Positions 37,786 to 43,495 of a stretch of DNA of 64,000 nt are shown piece by piece. The translations under genes and the position numbers were made by a program. Numbering within the stretch: position 1 is the stretch's first letter; every line of letters starts with the position of its first letter. Origin of the DNA: Candidatus Omnitrophota bacterium (GTDB lineage Bacteria; Omnitrophota; Gorgyraeia; Gygaellales; Profunditerraquicolaceae); NCBI GenBank assembly GCA_026387355.1, contig JAPLLW010000007.1, forward strand, positions 170,198-234,197, given 5' to 3'. Below the pieces are notes generated by a model. The model saw only the letters and a list, made by a program, of their open reading frames with translations, had not been told where the DNA came from and searched no databases.

Positions 37786-38181
37786 TTAATGGAGTGAAAA
37801 GCTTTGTGATGGATGACTAAAATCTGAGGAAGGCTTGCTGAAATCATCCGAAGGCCGGCTAAATTCACCCGAGGTTTTATTAAAATCATTTGAGGGTTGG
37901 CTAAAATCATCTGATGGCGAGGAAAAGTTATCTGAAGGTTTATCGAAATCACCTGAAATAGGCGAAAAGTCTATAGAAGAGTCGGAGAAATCTTCTGATG
38001 GCCTTCTAAAATCTCCTGAGGATATATTAAAGTCTTCTGAGGGCATATCAAAATCATCGGAAGGCTCGCTAAAATCCTCCGATGGCTTCTTAAATACAGC
38101 CTCATTAGTATCATTCACAGAAGCTAAAACAAACTGTACAGATAATAATACAAATAAGATTGCATACACTAACCTTTTCAT
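37786..38181 (-). CDS. secreted acidic tandem-repeat protein (PSxDF heptad/octad repeats)
   Basis: Signal peptide 'MKRLVYAILFVLLSVQFVLASV', then about 14 tandem units of 'PS[ED]DF[SND]x'. The plus-strand ORF 37835..38185 is the antisense mirror of the repeats. Confidence 0.5.
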   Translation of the reverse strand: MKRLVYAILFVLLSVQFVLASVNDTNEAVFKKPSEDFSEPSDDFDMPSEDFNISSGDFRRPSEDFSDSSIDFSPISGDFDKPSDNFSSPSDDFSQPSNDFNKTSGEFSRPSDDFSKPSSDFSHPSQSFSLH

Positions 38182-38223: not shown

Positions 38224-39786
38224 TCAAACAGATTTGCCATTGGCGTTAATTTGTTTTGAAAAATAGCCTCCAGTTAGAGAATCTATAGAAGCGGTTAACT
38301 CTTTAACCCGCAGCTCTTTTTCAAAACGTTTTCTGCGATCTTCAATTTGAAGGCTATCCATCTCCATCTTTACGCGAATTCGTTCAAAATAGAGCTTAAC
38401 AACTTCATCTAATATATCGTTGCGCAACTGTACCGTAAGACGGGAACGCGTATCAATAGAAGTTTGATCGTCATTCCAAATCAACTTGCCTAAATCCCAA
38501 CTTAAAACTACCCCCCAATCCAAGCTATCGCGGCCGCGCCTCAATGTATCGTCGTCAGCTTTAGTCGTAGAGCCGCCTTCCCAATGCCATAGATCAGTAG
38601 TATTCCTATCTAATCCAAAATTAACTTCTGGTAGGAGTGCCTTTGCGCAAGCCTGCTTTCGCCAAAGCGCTATCTTCTCAGGGTTAACCTCAGCATAGTT
38701 AATCGCAGCCTGCTGCACACTTTCAATACCGGGTTCTCCTTTAGTATATTCCATAACGATGTCATCTGACATACTCATAAGCTTAAAATTAAGTGCTGCG
38801 CGAAATAATCCCTTATCTGTACAAACGTAAAGATTCGCTTCTTTATCAAATCCCATGAAATTAATTATACTTGCGGGAAGCCCCAAAGATACCTCTTCCC
38901 AGCGATCTCCCTGATATACAAATAAACCTGACTTAGCAATTGCATAAACCTTGGATTTCTCAGAGAGCGCTAAAAACTGTGTGTCTCGGCTAAGTAAACC
39001 ATTATCAGAAAACAGCTCCCAATCAAGCCCCTGGGAACTACTCTTATAAATTCCGCGGTTGGTAGCAAGATATACAGTATTAATATGCTTCGGATCTAAA
39101 GCAATATACTTTACCCCTGAATAGAAATCTTCTTCTTGAGCTCCCTCAACCTCATCTTCAAAATCGCTGCCCTGACCTGAAGTCTTCGTAAAGTAAATCC
39201 TTTGCCAGCTTGACCCTGAATCTAAACTCCTGTATGCACCTGAAGTCGAGGCTATATAAACCTGGCTTAGTTCAATAGATGAACAGGTAATGTTAAATAT
39301 CTGACTTTCCCCAAGCTTACCAGGCTCTTTATGCCACGACCGGCCACCATCATTACTCTTAAACAAACCAGAGTTTGTTCCTAATAGGATTCCGTTTGAC
39401 ACTAAAGCAACCGAAGTACAACTGCCCTCAGAATAATTCTTCCCCTGAAATATCCTCTCCCACCTTTTGCCTGCATCCGAACTAGCATACAAACCTGCAG
39501 CAGTTGCAGCAAATATTCTGTTTTTGACTTGTTTATCAAAAACAAGATAGTTTACACTTCTGTTACTTCCTCTCACCTGTAAGAGATTATTCCAGGTTTC
39601 CCCTCCATCAGCACTCTTAAACAGGCCCTTATCCGAACCTAAATAAACCACTTTTTGATTTCCCGGGTCAACTACTACAAATTTTACATTGACAATACCC
39701 CGACTTACCTCCTGCCAGCTTACTTCGGCACACCAACAAATACTACAGATACTAAATAGTCCCCAAAATACTATCCCCATCTTCAT
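38224..39786 (-). CDS. secreted BNR/Asp-box repeat protein (Ycf48/sortilin-like beta-propeller)
   Basis: Signal peptide. Repeated S-x-D-x-G-x-T/S-W units ('SADGGETWN', 'SSDAGKRWERI', 'SNDGGRSWH', 'SLDSGSSWQRI'). Confidence 0.65.
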   Translation of the reverse strand: MKMGIVFWGLFSICSICWCAEVSWQEVSRGIVNVKFVVVDPGNQKVVYLGSDKGLFKSADGGETWNNLLQVRGSNRSVNYLVFDKQVKNRIFAATAAGLYASSDAGKRWERIFQGKNYSEGSCTSVALVSNGILLGTNSGLFKSNDGGRSWHKEPGKLGESQIFNITCSSIELSQVYIASTSGAYRSLDSGSSWQRIYFTKTSGQGSDFEDEVEGAQEEDFYSGVKYIALDPKHINTVYLATNRGIYKSSSQGLDWELFSDNGLLSRDTQFLALSEKSKVYAIAKSGLFVYQGDRWEEVSLGLPASIINFMGFDKEANLYVCTDKGLFRAALNFKLMSMSDDIVMEYTKGEPGIESVQQAAINYAEVNPEKIALWRKQACAKALLPEVNFGLDRNTTDLWHWEGGSTTKADDDTLRRGRDSLDWGVVLSWDLGKLIWNDDQTSIDTRSRLTVQLRNDILDEVVKLYFERIRVKMEMDSLQIEDRRKRFEKELRVKELTASIDSLTGGYFSKQINANGKSV

Positions 39787-39866: not shown

Positions 39867-39992
39867 AATTAAAAGCGGCAAGGGGAAATTTAGTTTTTGT
39901 TTGTTTTTTTCCGGGCATTGCCTGCCCGCTGGTAGTTTACCCCTTGCCTCATTGATAAATATAACACATTCTACCCATAATTTCAAGTAGGC

Positions 39993-40064
39993 ACAAAAAA
40001 AAGGGGTCAGAATTATTTATTCTAGCACATAAACTGTTGAATAAATAATTCTGACCCCTTTTTT
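39993..40064. repeat. palindromic mini-repeat element, long-loop form (copy A)
   Basis: Arms 'AAGGGGTCAGAATTATTTATTC' / 'GAATAAATAATTCTGACCCCTT' form a perfect ~24-bp inverted repeat around a 16-nt loop, with A- and T-runs outside. Lies immediately 3' of the gene ending at 40079. Confidence 0.7.
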
Positions 40065-40078
40065 ACCCTTTACTCAAC

Positions 40079-40504
40079 TTACCAAAGGTAATCTTTTATC
40101 TTCTGATCAGCCCTTAAATAAGCATATTCAGGAACCATTACCGGCTTATTATAAGGCGGAACCATGAAAGTCAATGTATCAAATACCCCCGCTCCTGCGC
40201 GAATCACGCTAGTAACTGCTCCCTGAACCAGACCAAATGTTATGCCTGTTAACGGATCAGTTTCATCAGATACTTTACATACCTGAGCTGGAATTTCTGT
40301 CCAGAAACCCACGCTATTCATTACCCCGCGATTCAGCTTGTTTATCGGCCTATCGCCATACGGGATCTTATCCGCATCGATTACAGGAATCGTGTTTATG
40401 CTACCATATTCAATATAATCATCCCCCATTTCATGCGCATACACAAATGAGGTTGCAGCCATTAAAACTACCAAAGCAAAAAGTACTAAAATCAAATTTT
40501 TCAT
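40079..40504 (-). CDS. exosortase-system-associated small secreted protein (TIGR04073-like)
   Basis: Signal peptide plus 'KLNRGVMNSVGFWTEIP...RAGAGVFDTLTFMVP', matching my recollection of the TIGR04073 family pattern (RGxxN...G(W/F)xEIP ... R(T/A)GAG..(E/D)..TF..P). Confidence 0.5.
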   Translation of the reverse strand: MKNLILVLFALVVLMAATSFVYAHEMGDDYIEYGSINTIPVIDADKIPYGDRPINKLNRGVMNSVGFWTEIPAQVCKVSDETDPLTGITFGLVQGAVTSVIRAGAGVFDTLTFMVPPYNKPVMVPEYAYLRADQKIKDYLW

Positions 40505-40535: not shown

Positions 40536-40778
40536 TTAGGATTTATGAATTTCTTCTATCAGCCTTGCTTTCAAGGTTTTAGCTGAATCTATCTTATCTC
40601 CCGAAATACCCGCCTCCATGGCAAAATCAATCAATCCACGAAGTATTTCGTTATAGGAGAGTTTATGTCCTGTTGAGAAAAGAGCATCTTTGCCTAGTTT
40701 ATCCAGGAAATCTATCTCCTGTCGGCCTAGCATGGTGATAACTCTGTGCACCATGATCTGTTTATCTAGCTTGTTCAT
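40536..40778 (-). CDS. small hypothetical protein (~80 aa)
   Basis: The ORF track starts at 40811, but an ATG at 40778 ('MNKLDKQ...') is preceded by 'AAAAGGGGGTGG' at SD distance. No recognisable domain. Confidence 0.45.
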   Translation of the reverse strand: MNKLDKQIMVHRVITMLGRQEIDFLDKLGKDALFSTGHKLSYNEILRGLIDFAMEAGISGDKIDSAKTLKARLIEEIHKS

Positions 40779-40814
40779 ATTGTACCACCCCCTTTTCAAA
40801 ATGTCCAGCATTAT

Positions 40815-40919
40815 TTATGCCGGCATCCCTAGATATAACCTTATGGCCTGTATGAAATTAAGGTGTCTTTTCTGCGTCCTTCTTCCTCTTTTAACCATCT
40901 TCCTGTGCATGCGTCTCAT
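40815..40919 (-). CDS. candidate 34-aa highly basic micro-ORF (MRRMHRKMVKRGRRTQKRH...)
   Basis: Strong SD 'GAAAAGGAGGGG' 5 nt upstream of the ATG, immediately downstream of the intrinsic terminator of the structured RNA. Not in the ORF track because it is under 60 aa. Confidence 0.2.
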   Translation of the reverse strand: MRRMHRKMVKRGRRTQKRHLNFIQAIRLYLGMPA

Positions 40920-40959
40920 TTTCCCCTCCTTTTCTAGTTCTTACGCTGGGGCTCATAAA

Positions 40960-40988
40960 CAAAAAACCCTAAAAGGCTTATTTAGGGT
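40960..40988 (-). terminator. rho-independent terminator (minus strand)
   Basis: Minus strand: 'CCCTAAAtaagcctTTTAGGG' followed by 'TTTTTTGTTT'. Confidence 0.55.
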
Positions 40989-41260
40989 TCATCCTTTTGG
41001 TAACCCCGCTATCCGCCACACTTCATGACGGACCGGAAGCTTTGCCTCTGCTTCGCTCTTTAATTAATGACTTATTAACTTTCGAGCTTCGCAGAGCCCT
41101 ACGAAGTCCGTCATAGCTTTTTCAAGCCTATTAAAGGACGAAGTAGGGGCCCCAACATTACTGTTAGTTTGCCTCCGCCACACTTCGTGGCGGACCCGCC
41201 ATCTTTGTGGCGGGTTTATCACTAGGTCAAATGCACCAAATTGTCAAAGTGTCAAATTAC
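40960..41260 (-). ncRNA. candidate ~300-nt highly structured small RNA or long leader (unclassified)
   Basis: Bounded by a near-consensus sigma70 promoter (41261-41296) and an intrinsic terminator (40960-40988). Contains several perfect GC-rich hairpins ('CCCGCCAcaaagaTGGCGGG', 'CCGCCACgaagtGTGGCGG', 'GGGGCCCC') and nested long-range pairings ('TGACGGAC'...'GTCCGTCA'). No match recognised to RNase P, SRP, tmRNA, 6S or common riboswitch cores. Confidence 0.3.
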
Positions 41261-41296
41261 ACTTGAAGTATAACATATTTTTTTGGCATTTGTCAA
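41261..41296 (-). promoter_or_regulatory. sigma70-type promoter (minus strand): TTGACA, 18-nt spacer, TATACT
   Basis: Minus-strand reading 'caccTTGACAaatgccaaaaaaatatgtTATACTtcaagtg'. Two further TTGACA hexamers follow within 40 nt downstream. Confidence 0.5.
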
Positions 41297-41302
41297 GGTG
41301 CC

Positions 41303-43495
41303 CTAATTTTGAGTTTCCAGGCTCAAAATCTCTGCTTTTACCTCTTTATAGCTTATAAGATCCAAACTACTATAAATTTCCTGCGCCTGGCGCAGATGTT
41401 CCCTGGCTTTGCTCTTTTTACCCAGCTTCTTAAACAGCAATCCCAGATTTCGCTCTGCTGCGGCCAATTCTAGCCTTGAATGGACCTGGGTAGCAAATAT
41501 AACTGCCTGTTTTAAGGCCTCTTCTGCCTCTAGGGACCTATCCATTTCCATATAGAGCTCGCCAATCATGTTATAATCAGAAGCTAAATTTACCTTATTG
41601 CCCTGCAACTGATCAATTCTTAGGCCGGAAAGATAGGAATCTAGCGCCTTTTGATACTGTTTTTCATATAAATAGAGCTCTCCTAAGTTAAAATAGTAAT
41701 CGCTTAGCTCATGCTTAAGCGCTAATTTCTCAAAAAGCGCCTGGCTTTTACGGTAAAATTGTTGGGCAGTGCCATAATCGTCCTTATTAGCAAAAACCAG
41801 GCCAATATCAAAATAATCGCAAGCCAGATTATAACGATGCGCATAAAGATGCTGATGCTCTAAGTTAATAGCTGTGCTTTTAGTTAACAAAACAAGTGCG
41901 GTGTCGTAATCCTTCTTATCTGTATGCCAGACCGCAAGCTTACGCAGCGCTATAGCCTCATTTAACTTATCACCATGCTTGACTGCAAGATTAAGCGCCT
42001 TATTGTAGAAATCAAGGGCTTTTGCATATTCACCTTCTAATTGATAAAACCAACCGATTTCAATATACGCTGATAAAAGGCTCTTAGTATCCTGTTTTTT
42101 CTCAACCAGTAGCGCATAAGTAAAATAGAAATTAAGCGCTTTTTCTTTATCACCGGTCCGGTAATATGTATCTGCCAATAGGTGATAAATCTCGGCAAAA
42201 GACTTATCTTTACTAATTATTTGCTCACCTAGCCTAAACACCTCTTCATTCTTACCTTTAGCAAATAATTTATTTGCCTTTAAATAAAGATAATACGCTC
42301 CCGGGTTAGTGGTTGGCAACCACAAATAAAAGAATGTGCTTAGCAAGAAAATGCTCACTAAAAGAATAATTCCGGGTATCCATTTCTTACTTAATTTTAA
42401 TTTGTGCCTTGGCTTAATTGACTTTTGTTTTGGCTTAAATATAACAAAACCAGGATCTCCGTAAAGTAAGTAATTAGCCCAATGTAATGAAATTATCCCA
42501 TATTCGTTAACTAGTTTAACTCTGGCTAAACGCACGCTCTCTCCCACTGATCTTCCATGGATCAGACAATGATAAAATTCTTTGGCAAAGGTTAGGCTTG
42601 CGCAATCTTCAATTCTACGTATCGATCCTATATAATGCCTTACTCCGGAAAATAGAAATGCCGCAGCTAGAGAATAATTCTTTCTCTGATAATCATGTTC
42701 AATTATAACCTCAACTCCTGCTTGGGCTGAATGACATGCATTTGAGAATACCAGCGTCGGTAAAGAGGCAGCCTGGCCCATACTTAAAATATCCTGAATG
42801 GAAAATTTACCATCGCTTAAGACCCAGCCGCTATTCTTTGGGTTCTGCGCTACATATTCGCAATGACCGGCAAAATGAACTATATCGTAATCGCAAAAGT
42901 TCTTTTTAACATACAGTTTATCAATATTGGTTGATTTGAAATCCACATGCATGGATGAGATGCTACGAGAAAACTGATTCTTGATATTTAAACCCTCCGC
43001 ATATGCCGCTTTTAAATCATCGGTAGGATTAGCTAGAATTAGCATCTTATAGATGTGCGTAGGATTGCGGTACTGAAGTACGCCTGCCTGGCTTTTAGTT
43101 CTTACTTGCCTGCCAATATTAAAACTCAAACAGAGAAAGTTCTGCCCGTCATACAAAACCTCCCAGGGGATATTGATTAATTCTTCGTCGATAACCAGCG
43201 CTAGATTTAAGACTTCACTTGCCTTTAATCTCTCCTTAACTGAGCGGCTAAGTAGATGATCCCAAAGCGCCTGGCCTGTCTTTTGAAGGTTTTTGATTAT
43301 TGCAGAATCTTTTGCTTGGGCCTTGTTCCAAACTGAGGTAATCTCATGACAAAGCTTATCGATCTCGCTAAAATCTATCTTGTGCTGGCTATAACGCTTA
43401 AGCGTTGAAGCAGTCTCTTCTGAATCAAAGATACTCATCTTCAGAAGATCATCCTGCCGGCTTATTTCTAAAACTAATCCTTTTTCACTCTGCAT
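41303..43495 (-). CDS. CHAT-domain (caspase-like) protease, single TM helix, C-terminal TPR-repeat domain
   Basis: N-terminal ~350 aa show CHAT hallmarks: 'INIPWEVLYDG', catalytic His in 'IVHFAGHCEY' and catalytic Cys in 'LVFSNACHSAQAG'. TM helix 'IPGIILLVSIFLLSTFFYLWL' lies at about residue 372-392. About 330 aa of TPR-like repeats follow (repeated 'A..YY..G..Y...G.Y..AL..Y..AL'). Confidence 0.8.
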   Translation of the reverse strand: MQSEKGLVLEISRQDDLLKMSIFDSEETASTLKRYSQHKIDFSEIDKLCHEITSVWNKAQAKDSAIIKNLQKTGQALWDHLLSRSVKERLKASEVLNLALVIDEELINIPWEVLYDGQNFLCLSFNIGRQVRTKSQAGVLQYRNPTHIYKMLILANPTDDLKAAYAEGLNIKNQFSRSISSMHVDFKSTNIDKLYVKKNFCDYDIVHFAGHCEYVAQNPKNSGWVLSDGKFSIQDILSMGQAASLPTLVFSNACHSAQAGVEVIIEHDYQRKNYSLAAAFLFSGVRHYIGSIRRIEDCASLTFAKEFYHCLIHGRSVGESVRLARVKLVNEYGIISLHWANYLLYGDPGFVIFKPKQKSIKPRHKLKLSKKWIPGIILLVSIFLLSTFFYLWLPTTNPGAYYLYLKANKLFAKGKNEEVFRLGEQIISKDKSFAEIYHLLADTYYRTGDKEKALNFYFTYALLVEKKQDTKSLLSAYIEIGWFYQLEGEYAKALDFYNKALNLAVKHGDKLNEAIALRKLAVWHTDKKDYDTALVLLTKSTAINLEHQHLYAHRYNLACDYFDIGLVFANKDDYGTAQQFYRKSQALFEKLALKHELSDYYFNLGELYLYEKQYQKALDSYLSGLRIDQLQGNKVNLASDYNMIGELYMEMDRSLEAEEALKQAVIFATQVHSRLELAAAERNLGLLFKKLGKKSKAREHLRQAQEIYSSLDLISYKEVKAEILSLETQN

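Follow-up and report, generated by a model that had tools for sequence, protein, structure and literature searches.

We find that the hairpin-rich leader at 41226..40993 in a 64-kb stretch of DNA from an uncultured Candidatus Omnitrophota bacterium (the window, meaning the whole stretch analysed, to which all unprefixed coordinates refer) is probably a cyclic di-guanosine monophosphate class I (c-di-GMP-I, or GEMM-I) aptamer, followed by an intrinsic terminator and placed ahead of a three-gene operon, with a core that is interrupted twice by inserted hairpins and with a putative OFF logic. The riboswitch and the operon, which begins with a very short open reading frame (the micro-ORF), all lie on the minus strand. 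The region appears to hold a known riboswitch class in its usual regulatory position, in a structural variant that is apparently undescribed.

Identification of the leader

A permissive Rfam scan returned one credible match, to c-di-GMP-I (RF01051) at 41067..40996 on the minus strand, with 34.4 bits and E = 1.8e-4 against a gathering cut-off of 35 bits for this family; no gathering-level match exists anywhere in the 64-kb window. The model aligns with the 3' (P3) half only, with P2 collapsed in the alignment, because the aptamer is split twice by inserts, and the shortfall in score is likewise attributable to the insert, since uninterrupted orthologues reach 58-67 bits. An initial annotation of this DNA could place the RNA in no known family and proposed an Rfam scan; that scan does reclassify it as a known element, yet with a score just under the cut-off. 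Among the readings offered in that annotation, a riboswitch leader ending in a terminator is the one backed here, both by the RF01051 match and by canonical aptamers (59-67 bits) at orthologous loci.

To compare such loci, we fetched 80 that encode relatives of an 80-amino-acid (aa) protein, the second product of the operon, from GTDB species genomes. Matches to the c-di-GMP-I clan of 58.5-66.6 bits were present in 17 of the 20 orthologous loci scanned, two further loci that carry inserts scored 36-37 bits, and all 19 matches lie 250-350 nt upstream of the 80-aa gene. Closer relatives agree, as three of three carry a clan match upstream of the gene (60-62 bits). When the window leader was used in an nhmmer search, its positions ~1-114 and ~215-312 were found to abut directly in relatives. 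The canonical locus L001 reads CCUAGUGAUAAA (first mark) GGCUAAC-hairpin(GUAA)-GGGGC (second mark) GCAAAGCUUCCGG...AGCGGGGUUGCCAAAAGG, and the window has identical flanks with 41 nt added at the first mark (hairpins A+B) and 103 nt at the second (hairpins D+E). With the flanks the same and two insertions between them, the window RNA amounts to a GEMM-I aptamer broken at two points.

The initial annotation had also considered an independent small RNA (sRNA) ending at the terminator, with separately transcribed genes, or a leader-peptide attenuator, and we regard either as extremely improbable. A strong promoter and a clean terminator do bracket ~300 nt, and a second promoter-like site (TGGACA-17-TACAAT) lies at 40807..40779, as an sRNA would have it; but the RNA belongs to a cis-acting aptamer class and keeps its place beside the same genes in more than 40 loci. 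As for attenuation, no ORF upstream of the terminator would fit as a leader peptide, and the sole short ORF equipped with a ribosome-binding site begins 38 nt past the terminator and is conserved as a protein.

Anatomy of the aptamer core

All canonical parts of a GEMM-I core are kept in the window, namely P1, G20, the 2-bp helix, P2, the C44 bulge, A47, P3 and C92 (Vc2 numbering), with the following placement.

41220..41226, minus strand: P1 (P1a) 5' strand CCUAGUG, pairing with CAAAAGG (40999..40993); same strands in orthologues such as L001
41168..41173, minus strand: G20 (41173), G21-C22 and the AAA of the core, by alignment to canonical orthologues
41152..41167, minus strand: P2 (P1b in Vc2 nomenclature), a 6-bp hairpin with a GUAA (GNRA) tetraloop, CUAACA-GUAA-UGUUGG
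41149..41151, minus strand: 3-nt bulge GGC, in which C41149 is C44 of Vc2, by alignment
41042..41045, minus strand: G45-C46 (pairing with C22-G21), A47 (41043) and A48, by Rfam match, alignment and covariation
41002..41041, minus strand: P3 (P2 in Vc2 nomenclature), with an AG bulge (G83 equivalent 41009) and AGCGGGGUU; the part matched by RF01051
40993..41001, minus strand: ACC (C92 equivalent 41000) and the P1 3' strand CAAAAGG (40999..40993), by Rfam match and fold

Aligned to the orthologues and to the Rfam consensus, the ligand-contacting positions are all intact, with G41173 as G20, A41043 as A47 and C41000 as C92. The AAA/GNC internal loop, the GNRA hairpin of P2 and the 2-bp G21-C46/C22-G45 helix are all present, as are C44 and a P3 with its AG bulge and the conserved AGC-GGGG-UU 3' strand. 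In Vc2 crystal structures, A47 intercalates between the two ligand guanines. G20 of Vc2 contacts one of these guanines while C92 pairs with the other, and C44 is Watson-Crick paired to G83, which lies in the other helix (PMC11705072). What the window does not have is a compact three-way junction, as P2 and P3 are not directly joined via C44-G45-C46-A47. Across aptamers that carry the D-E insert, five of the six P2 pairs and five of the ten P3 pairs have changed on both sides.

Folding agrees with this anatomy. The 313-nt leader has a folding energy of -118.5 kcal/mol (z = -5.8), which none of 100 shuffles equalled, and its unconstrained minimum free energy (MFE) structure holds P1 (including the CCUAGUG/CAAAAGG pairing), A, B, P2, D, E, P3 and the terminator; when the GEMM-I pairs are imposed on the fold, the cost relative to the MFE is under 3 kcal/mol. 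Several motifs picked out in the initial annotation can be placed on this map. The direct repeat GAAGTGTGGCGG is found in hairpin B and in P3. The string GGGGCCCC, described there as a hairpin, does exist, but by homology it comprises the end of P2, the bulge and the first bases of hairpin D and forms no hairpin of its own; similarly, the complementarity behind the proposed long-range TGACGGAC/GTCCGTCA stems is real, but the segments are occupied by the covarying local stem 2 of D and by distal P3.

The D-E insert

The larger insert (103 nt) enters the core precisely at the step from C44 to G45, so that more than three helices meet at what would otherwise be a three-way junction; given this entry site, D-E adjoins the ligand pocket. 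It consists of two hairpins, both supported by the fold and by covariation.

41097..41148, minus strand: inserted hairpin D, with 6 bp, a UUC/UUC internal loop, 4 bp and a distal three-way part
41046..41096, minus strand: inserted hairpin E, with 6 bp, a GAA/GAA internal loop, 4 bp and a distal hairpin

Among the fetched loci, D-E recurs with compensatory stem changes in L032 and L078, whose 80-aa proteins are 73% and 43% identical to that of the window. A metagenome collection was scanned with a pattern for the D/E boundary and the end of E, with GEMM-I flanks not required, and of the 16 loci recovered (15 distinct) all 16 have D-E at the identical site of a GEMM-I aptamer. In total 18 examples exist beyond the window, every one at this site, and only 6 of these 18 reach the Rfam cut-off. 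For covariation, 17 mutually related sequences were aligned without gaps after removal of the variable distal parts: 98.5% of cells are paired, 18 of 38 pairs have changed on both sides, and none of 500 shuffles reaches the observed values, while slid-register controls give 37-49% paired. Even the 2-bp helix G21-C46/C22-G45, which spans the insert, has CG in place of GC in two sequences. Covariation, a check suggested for the hairpins in the initial annotation, favours the D and E stems. Many GEMM-I aptamers of Omnitrophota share D-E as a peripheral domain that is conserved and covaries.

The conserved features of this module are its 6-bp basal stems, symmetric 3x3 internal loops and covarying second stems. 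The loops bear the signatures U-N-C/U-N-C in D and G-A-A/G-N-A in E, flanked by stems that covary. In their distal parts AT-rich members form small three-way structures, GC-rich members simple hairpins. Two other arrangements were considered and rejected. A cross-fold of D with E (D 5' with E 3', D 3' with E 5', and UUC-GAA pairing) is contradicted by the variable fifth stem position, at which, in an alignment inspected by eye, the hairpin partners are paired in 16 of 17 sequences for D and 17 of 17 for E, whereas cross partners are mismatched in most. A paranemic or kissing contact between the UUC and GAA loops is disfavoured by middle nucleotides that vary independently, the 5' loop of E being fixed by the search pattern and hence uninformative. 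Complementarity between the distal parts of D and E (UUUAAU/AUUAAA, UGAC/GUCA) reaches z = -5.1 in L081 and -2.25 in the window, and is absent in others.

The D-E variant so far looks confined to Omnitrophota; the named relatives of the PilM encoded next to the GC-rich example L095 are all from this phylum. Genes downstream of D-E-type aptamers encode TIGR04073, response regulator, GAF-HD, type IV pilin, PilM, FIST and GH1 hydrolase proteins, which are typical members of c-di-GMP regulons. Position 20 is A, not G, in the D-E-type aptamer of L092/L096 (AGCAAAC). Another D-E-type riboswitch (L087:1-1245) shares its contig with a 5S rRNA and with a partial 23S rRNA that contains a group I intron (60.6 bits).

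On the most conservative reading, the inserted hairpins are structural scaffolding tolerated by the junction, because the backbone already turns sharply at C44/G45. A functional add-on, whereby D-E and perhaps A-B would provide a second ligand or ion site, a platform for a protein (e.g. the Arg-rich 34-aa peptide encoded downstream) or a tuner of specificity or affinity, seems to us quite unlikely. The insertion between C44 and G45 at the ligand pocket, internal-loop signatures kept while the flanking stems covary, and retention of D-E across low-GC and high-GC Omnitrophota would all suit such a role. Yet the insert has no Rfam family match (in the Rfam scan of the window), covariation between the D and E internal loops was not found, the distal complementarity varies from sequence to sequence, many loci with neither A-B nor D-E still have the micro-ORF, and the core positions G20, A47 and C92 are those of ordinary c-di-GMP binders. 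The related proposal that D-E is an unrecognised functional domain grafted into the c-di-GMP-I junction, with A-B and the modules of L053, L060, L073 and L090 as further cases, is speculative and in our view unlikely. If true, the grafted D-E would make a multi-helix sensor with a second input, altered specificity or affinity, or a docking site for a protein, and a module moving between paralogous riboswitches would explain its patchy distribution in close relatives.

The A+B insert

The smaller insert (41 nt) separates the J1/2 adenines from G20 in the strand that joins P1 to P2. Its two GC hairpins, among those listed in the initial annotation, are CCCGCCAcaaagaTGGCGGG at 41214..41195 and CCGCCACgaagtGTGGCGG at 41193..41175.

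41195..41214, minus strand: inserted hairpin A, CCCGCCA-CAAAGA-UGGCGGG (CCCGCCAcaaagaTGGCGGG), from the fold; not in canonical orthologues
41174..41194, minus strand: inserted hairpin B, UCCGCCAC-GAAGU-GUGGCGGA, from the fold; ends one base before G20

Both hairpins are also found in L097, and a related form of A in L090. The CCGCCA/UGGCGG type of hairpin to which A and B belong serves as distal P3 in several other aptamers, and in L053, L060, L073 and L090 the two insertion sites harbour two-hairpin modules of other kinds. Evidently both insertion sites are permissive, and hairpins appear to have been duplicated into them.

A separate two-hairpin module, CCCCGUUAGAGAUAAYGGGG + CCGUUAGAG..AAUCUCUAACGG, recurs in the P1-P2 joining strand of L053:2135-2190, L048, L021, L073 and L090. 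In the L053-type module the 3' arm of the second hairpin is matched by a complementary sequence in the loop of the first.

Distribution and origin of the inserts

The loci nearest to the window, judged by identity to its 80-aa protein, differ from it in the inserts as follows.

L102/L103: 92% identity; A+B absent; D-E absent
L097-L099: 89% identity; A+B present in L097, upstream part missing in the short L098 and L099 contigs; D-E absent (L097, L099)
L100/L101: 88% identity; A+B absent; D-E absent

Known D-E copies are 59-81% identical to that of the window, roughly parallel to the divergence of the core, and near-identical copies were not seen. Comparison of the window with L097 or L100 reveals no target-site duplication (TSD), and the 64-kb window contains no further copies of A-B or D-E. 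An origin of the inserts from miniature inverted-repeat transposable elements (MITEs), repetitive extragenic palindromes (REPs) or IS200-IS605 elements was considered and finds no support, given no dispersed copies in the window, no TSD and a single GEMM-I site in 16 of 16 loci. Divergence in step with the core, together with the lack of a TSD and of other copies in the window, speaks against recent activity as a selfish element and fits better with a variant lineage of long standing, either swapped between riboswitch copies or easily lost.

The same evidence bears on whether the riboswitch has decayed, that is, whether A+B and D+E are selfish or accidental insertions (MITE- or REP-like palindromes, or slippage) that broke the aptamer and left constitutive termination or read-through. 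The nearest orthologues are free of the D-E insert and mostly of both, D and E are rough reverse complements while A and B share stems, which gives them the look of palindromic DNA, the Rfam score falls from ~60 to 34 bits, and the window has also lost a second terminator and a GCCACGG motif that relatives possess. We nevertheless hold decay to be improbable, as D-E has been met 19 times, always at the identical GEMM-I position although the search pattern did not demand it; its stems, and the 2-bp helix across the insert, show compensatory covariation; it diverges as the core does, with neither a visible TSD nor sister copies in the window; and every ligand-contacting position is intact.

Terminator and switching logic

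The expression platform is an intrinsic terminator, which the initial annotation had rightly located near 40988-40960.

40957..40990, minus strand: intrinsic terminator, with a 10-bp stem (40990..40964) followed by the T-run UUUUUUGUUU; conserved in orthologues

Its folding energy is -11.7 to -13.4 kcal/mol, and a terminator-like form is present in 57 distinct loci. The stem begins at 40990, three bases on from the end of P1 at 40993, so that there is no overlap with the aptamer, and a bound aptamer therefore cannot block the terminator directly. Strands of the aptamer are complementary to parts of the terminator: CAAAAGG:CCUUUU amounts to -2.7 kcal/mol in the window and to 7 bp in L001 and L008, UAGGG:CCCUA pairing is available in another subgroup of loci, and GGGGUU:AACCCU amounts to -8.3 kcal/mol in the window. 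Folds of growing prefixes contain transient anti-terminator hairpins, and complementarity of the 12 nt 3' of the aptamer to the terminator exceeds that of shuffles (mean z = -0.98, with 61% of the 57 loci below -1).

In the mechanism we propose, c-di-GMP binding at the junction would lock P1 and P3, whose 3' strands CAAAAGG and GGGGUU would then no longer be free to pair with the terminator arms; the terminator would form and transcription would end ahead of the micro-ORF, making the element an OFF switch. At low c-di-GMP these strands would transiently pair with the terminator and let the polymerase read through, and the switch would in this way control the micro-protein, the 80-aa protein and the TIGR04073 exosortase-associated protein. 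On the base-pairing evidence we lean slightly towards this OFF logic. The opposite, in which c-di-GMP permits read-through (ON) or regulation occurs beyond the first terminator, is possible but rather doubtful. Functions of the TIGR04073/exosortase kind are linked to a sessile, high-c-di-GMP state, which ON logic would fit, and with anti-terminators far weaker than the terminator the default state looks like termination; in a comparison of ON and OFF folds the terminator was always the more stable structure. But with an aptamer that ends at 40993 and a terminator that starts at 40990 no obvious route for blocking exists, and in most loci the strand 3' of the aptamer complements parts of the terminator, as an OFF design would require.

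Several observations count against the interpretation as a twice-interrupted, OFF-acting GEMM-I riboswitch. The RF01051 score is 0.6 bits under the gathering cut-off. The closest orthologues (88-92% protein identity) have no D-E, and two of the three lineages no A+B either; because these nearest gene orthologues are without D-E, the inserts of the window may be recent gains or swaps. A+B adjoins G20 and could disturb the pocket, and some columns of the D/E alignment are invariant by construction, having been specified in the search pattern, and are uninformative in that respect. The anti-terminators (-2.7 and -8.3 kcal/mol) are weak relative to the terminator (-11.7 to -13.4), and the OFF logic is therefore not secure; moreover, for a gene linked to exosortase and exopolysaccharide (EPS) one would sooner expect c-di-GMP to act as an ON signal.

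Two features that close relatives show in the stretch from the riboswitch terminator to the micro-ORF, another terminator hairpin and a conserved GCCACGG motif (L097:1095-1240, L100:935-1030, L102:1035-1150), have been lost from the corresponding segment of the window (40957..40934).

The downstream operon

The three genes and the hairpin that follows them are arranged as below.

40815..40933, minus strand: Shine-Dalgarno sequence (SD) AAAAGGAGGGG (40933..40923) and gene for a 34-aa Arg/Lys-rich micro-protein (40919..40815); ORF list and tblastn
40536..40778, minus strand: conserved 80-aa Omnitrophota protein; 477 homologues, many at least 70% identical
40079..40504, minus strand: TIGR04073 exosortase-system-associated protein gene, last of the operon; 68.7 bits against a cut-off of 50
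39994..40062, minus strand: long hairpin and U-run, read directly from the sequence

The strong SD, the 34-codon ORF (40919..40815) and the gene after it are as the initial annotation described them. Homologues of the micro-ORF, sought by tblastn on the fetched loci, occur in 30 Omnitrophota loci, each copy with a strong SD of its own, which answers the earlier suggestion to look for its conservation. The micro-ORF is always linked to the 80-aa gene, usually on the riboswitch side and sometimes downstream of it, and is present in many loci without A-B and D-E. The consensus of its product is M[KR]R..H[KR]...[KR]..[KR]..HK[KR]HLNFL.A[IL]RL[YF].GMP, with the C-terminal half conserved, and its codons, where the sequences of close relatives were read, differ synonymously. 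Judged by this conservation, the micro-ORF is a predicted gene for a small protein and not a leader peptide.

The 80-aa protein is 100% identical to a protein from a Candidatus Omnitrophica metagenome-assembled genome, and its homologues start at the ATG at 40778, which gives the length of 80 aa. Nothing significant was found for it in Pfam, NCBIfam, a PDB-sequence profile search or a Foldseek search against PDB. An AlphaFold2 monomer model is all-helical (predicted local distance difference test, pLDDT, 70.7), and a ribbon-helix-helix pattern in the sequence is only an impression. A simple terminator scan did not call the hairpin at 39994..40062, whose loop is 16 nt; we consider that this hairpin probably ends the operon.

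Beyond it, a promoter-like TTGAAA-17-TATATT with a TG extension (39958..39986, minus strand) precedes a BNR/Sortilin-repeat gene (39786..38224), which is probably outside riboswitch control. Further on, a 131-aa ORF (37786..38181, minus strand) has a signal-peptide-like start and many degenerate PS(D/E)DF(S/N) repeats, with no family match.

Promoter and upstream leader elements

Two features lie between the upstream gene and P1.

41267..41296, minus strand: sigma-70-type promoter with extended -10 TGTTATACT (41275..41267); 11 of 12 positions, arrangement kept in orthologous loci
41236..41256, minus strand: leader repeats TTTGACAC-TTTGACAATTTGG, with a third TTTGAC at 41232; conserved element between the -10 box and P1

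The near-consensus promoter claimed for 41296-41261 is indeed present, with TTGACA as -35 box (41296..41291), an 18-nt spacer, TATACT as -10 box (41272..41267) and a TG extension, matching 11 of 12 consensus positions. It stands, as had been noted, directly past the stop of a CHAT-TPR gene (ORF 43495..41303, a CHAT+TPR protein), and the two additional TTGACA hexamers were found at 41254 and 41246. The combination of TTGACA and TGTTATACT was seen again in dozens of orthologous loci; in the 2-kb region, the number of promoter-like sites is no higher than in shuffles. Between the extended -10 box and P1, the element TTGACAATT[T/A]GG precedes the aptamer in at least 43 of 88 loci, often preceded itself by 1-4 extra TGACA repeats ~9-10 nt apart. 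It might serve as an operator bound by a DNA-binding protein, or function as an RNA element.

Some loci have further structures around the aptamer. A pseudoknot-like element (UUGAUCCUUCGA..CUCAGGAUCAA..CCUGAGCGAAG) lies between promoter and aptamer in L052:2215-2275, L053:2070-2130 and L075:2140-2225, and a related CCCUGAGUGAGUCCGCCGAAGGCGGACGAAUCGAAGGG hairpin lies 3' of the riboswitch terminator in L053:2385-2425, L055:8-48, L041 and L044. In L053, which has both, neither has an Rfam match at gathering level, and they may be undescribed motifs.

Comparison with known systems

With RF01051 and Vc2 the window aptamer shares P1, the GGCAAAC followed by a hairpin with a GNRA tetraloop, the 3-nt bulge ending in C44, GCAAAG (A47), P3 with its AG bulge (G83) and AGCGGGGUU, and ACC (C92); it shares with RF01051 members generally the position in a 5' leader with an intrinsic terminator and downstream genes of the c-di-GMP-regulon type. 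Unlike them, it has 103 nt (D+E) between C44 and G45 and 41 nt (A+B) 5' of G20, and its P3 has no 11-nt tetraloop receptor, in contrast to Vc2, as is also true of the Omnitrophota orthologues. The c-di-GMP-I-GGC family (RF03167) and the GEMM-Ib variants that bind 3'3'-cyclic GMP-AMP (3'3'-cGAMP) belong to the same clan, and many uninterrupted Omnitrophota orthologues score best with RF03167, probably because that model includes P1. Whereas these relatives differ by point changes in the pocket, the window differs by inserted domains and keeps in G20, A47 and C92 the ordinary c-di-GMP signature; the A at position 20 of the D-E-type L092 is, by contrast, a signature of the 3'3'-cGAMP type (GEMM-Ib).

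Lineage-specific helices have been added to ligand-binding cores in cobalamin riboswitches and, as P3 extensions, in those for thiamine pyrophosphate (TPP), with the core nucleotides unchanged. Unlike these extensions, D-E enters a junction strand beside the pocket, not the tip of a helix, and has internal-loop signatures of its own. TIGR04073 genes may often be preceded by c-di-GMP riboswitches. In Bacillus thuringiensis, the expression platform of the c-di-GMP-I riboswitch Bc1 is long and contains two terminators (PMC11218506), to which the two successive terminator hairpins after the aptamer in L097, L100 and L102 may be likened; the window keeps only the first, and in aptamer architecture it differs from Bc1. 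In the literature, of which our coverage is incomplete, we found no report of inserted domains or extra stems in GEMM-I, none of c-di-GMP riboswitches in Omnitrophota and no relevant one on TIGR04073.

Implications

The core finding is a known element, and current understanding is not overturned. It does indicate that Omnitrophota possess a sizeable set of c-di-GMP riboswitches that are split by a domain of 80-110 nt and mostly fall under the Rfam threshold, and c-di-GMP regulons are therefore under-called in this phylum; a dedicated covariance model would recover the split aptamers. Set in a riboswitch fold that ranks among the best studied, the D-E domain offers a natural test of how far riboswitch junctions can be elaborated and of whether such additions tune sensing. 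Finally, the predicted riboswitch links c-di-GMP signalling in ultra-small uncultured bacteria to a conserved operon for a micro-protein, an 80-aa protein and a TIGR04073 protein.

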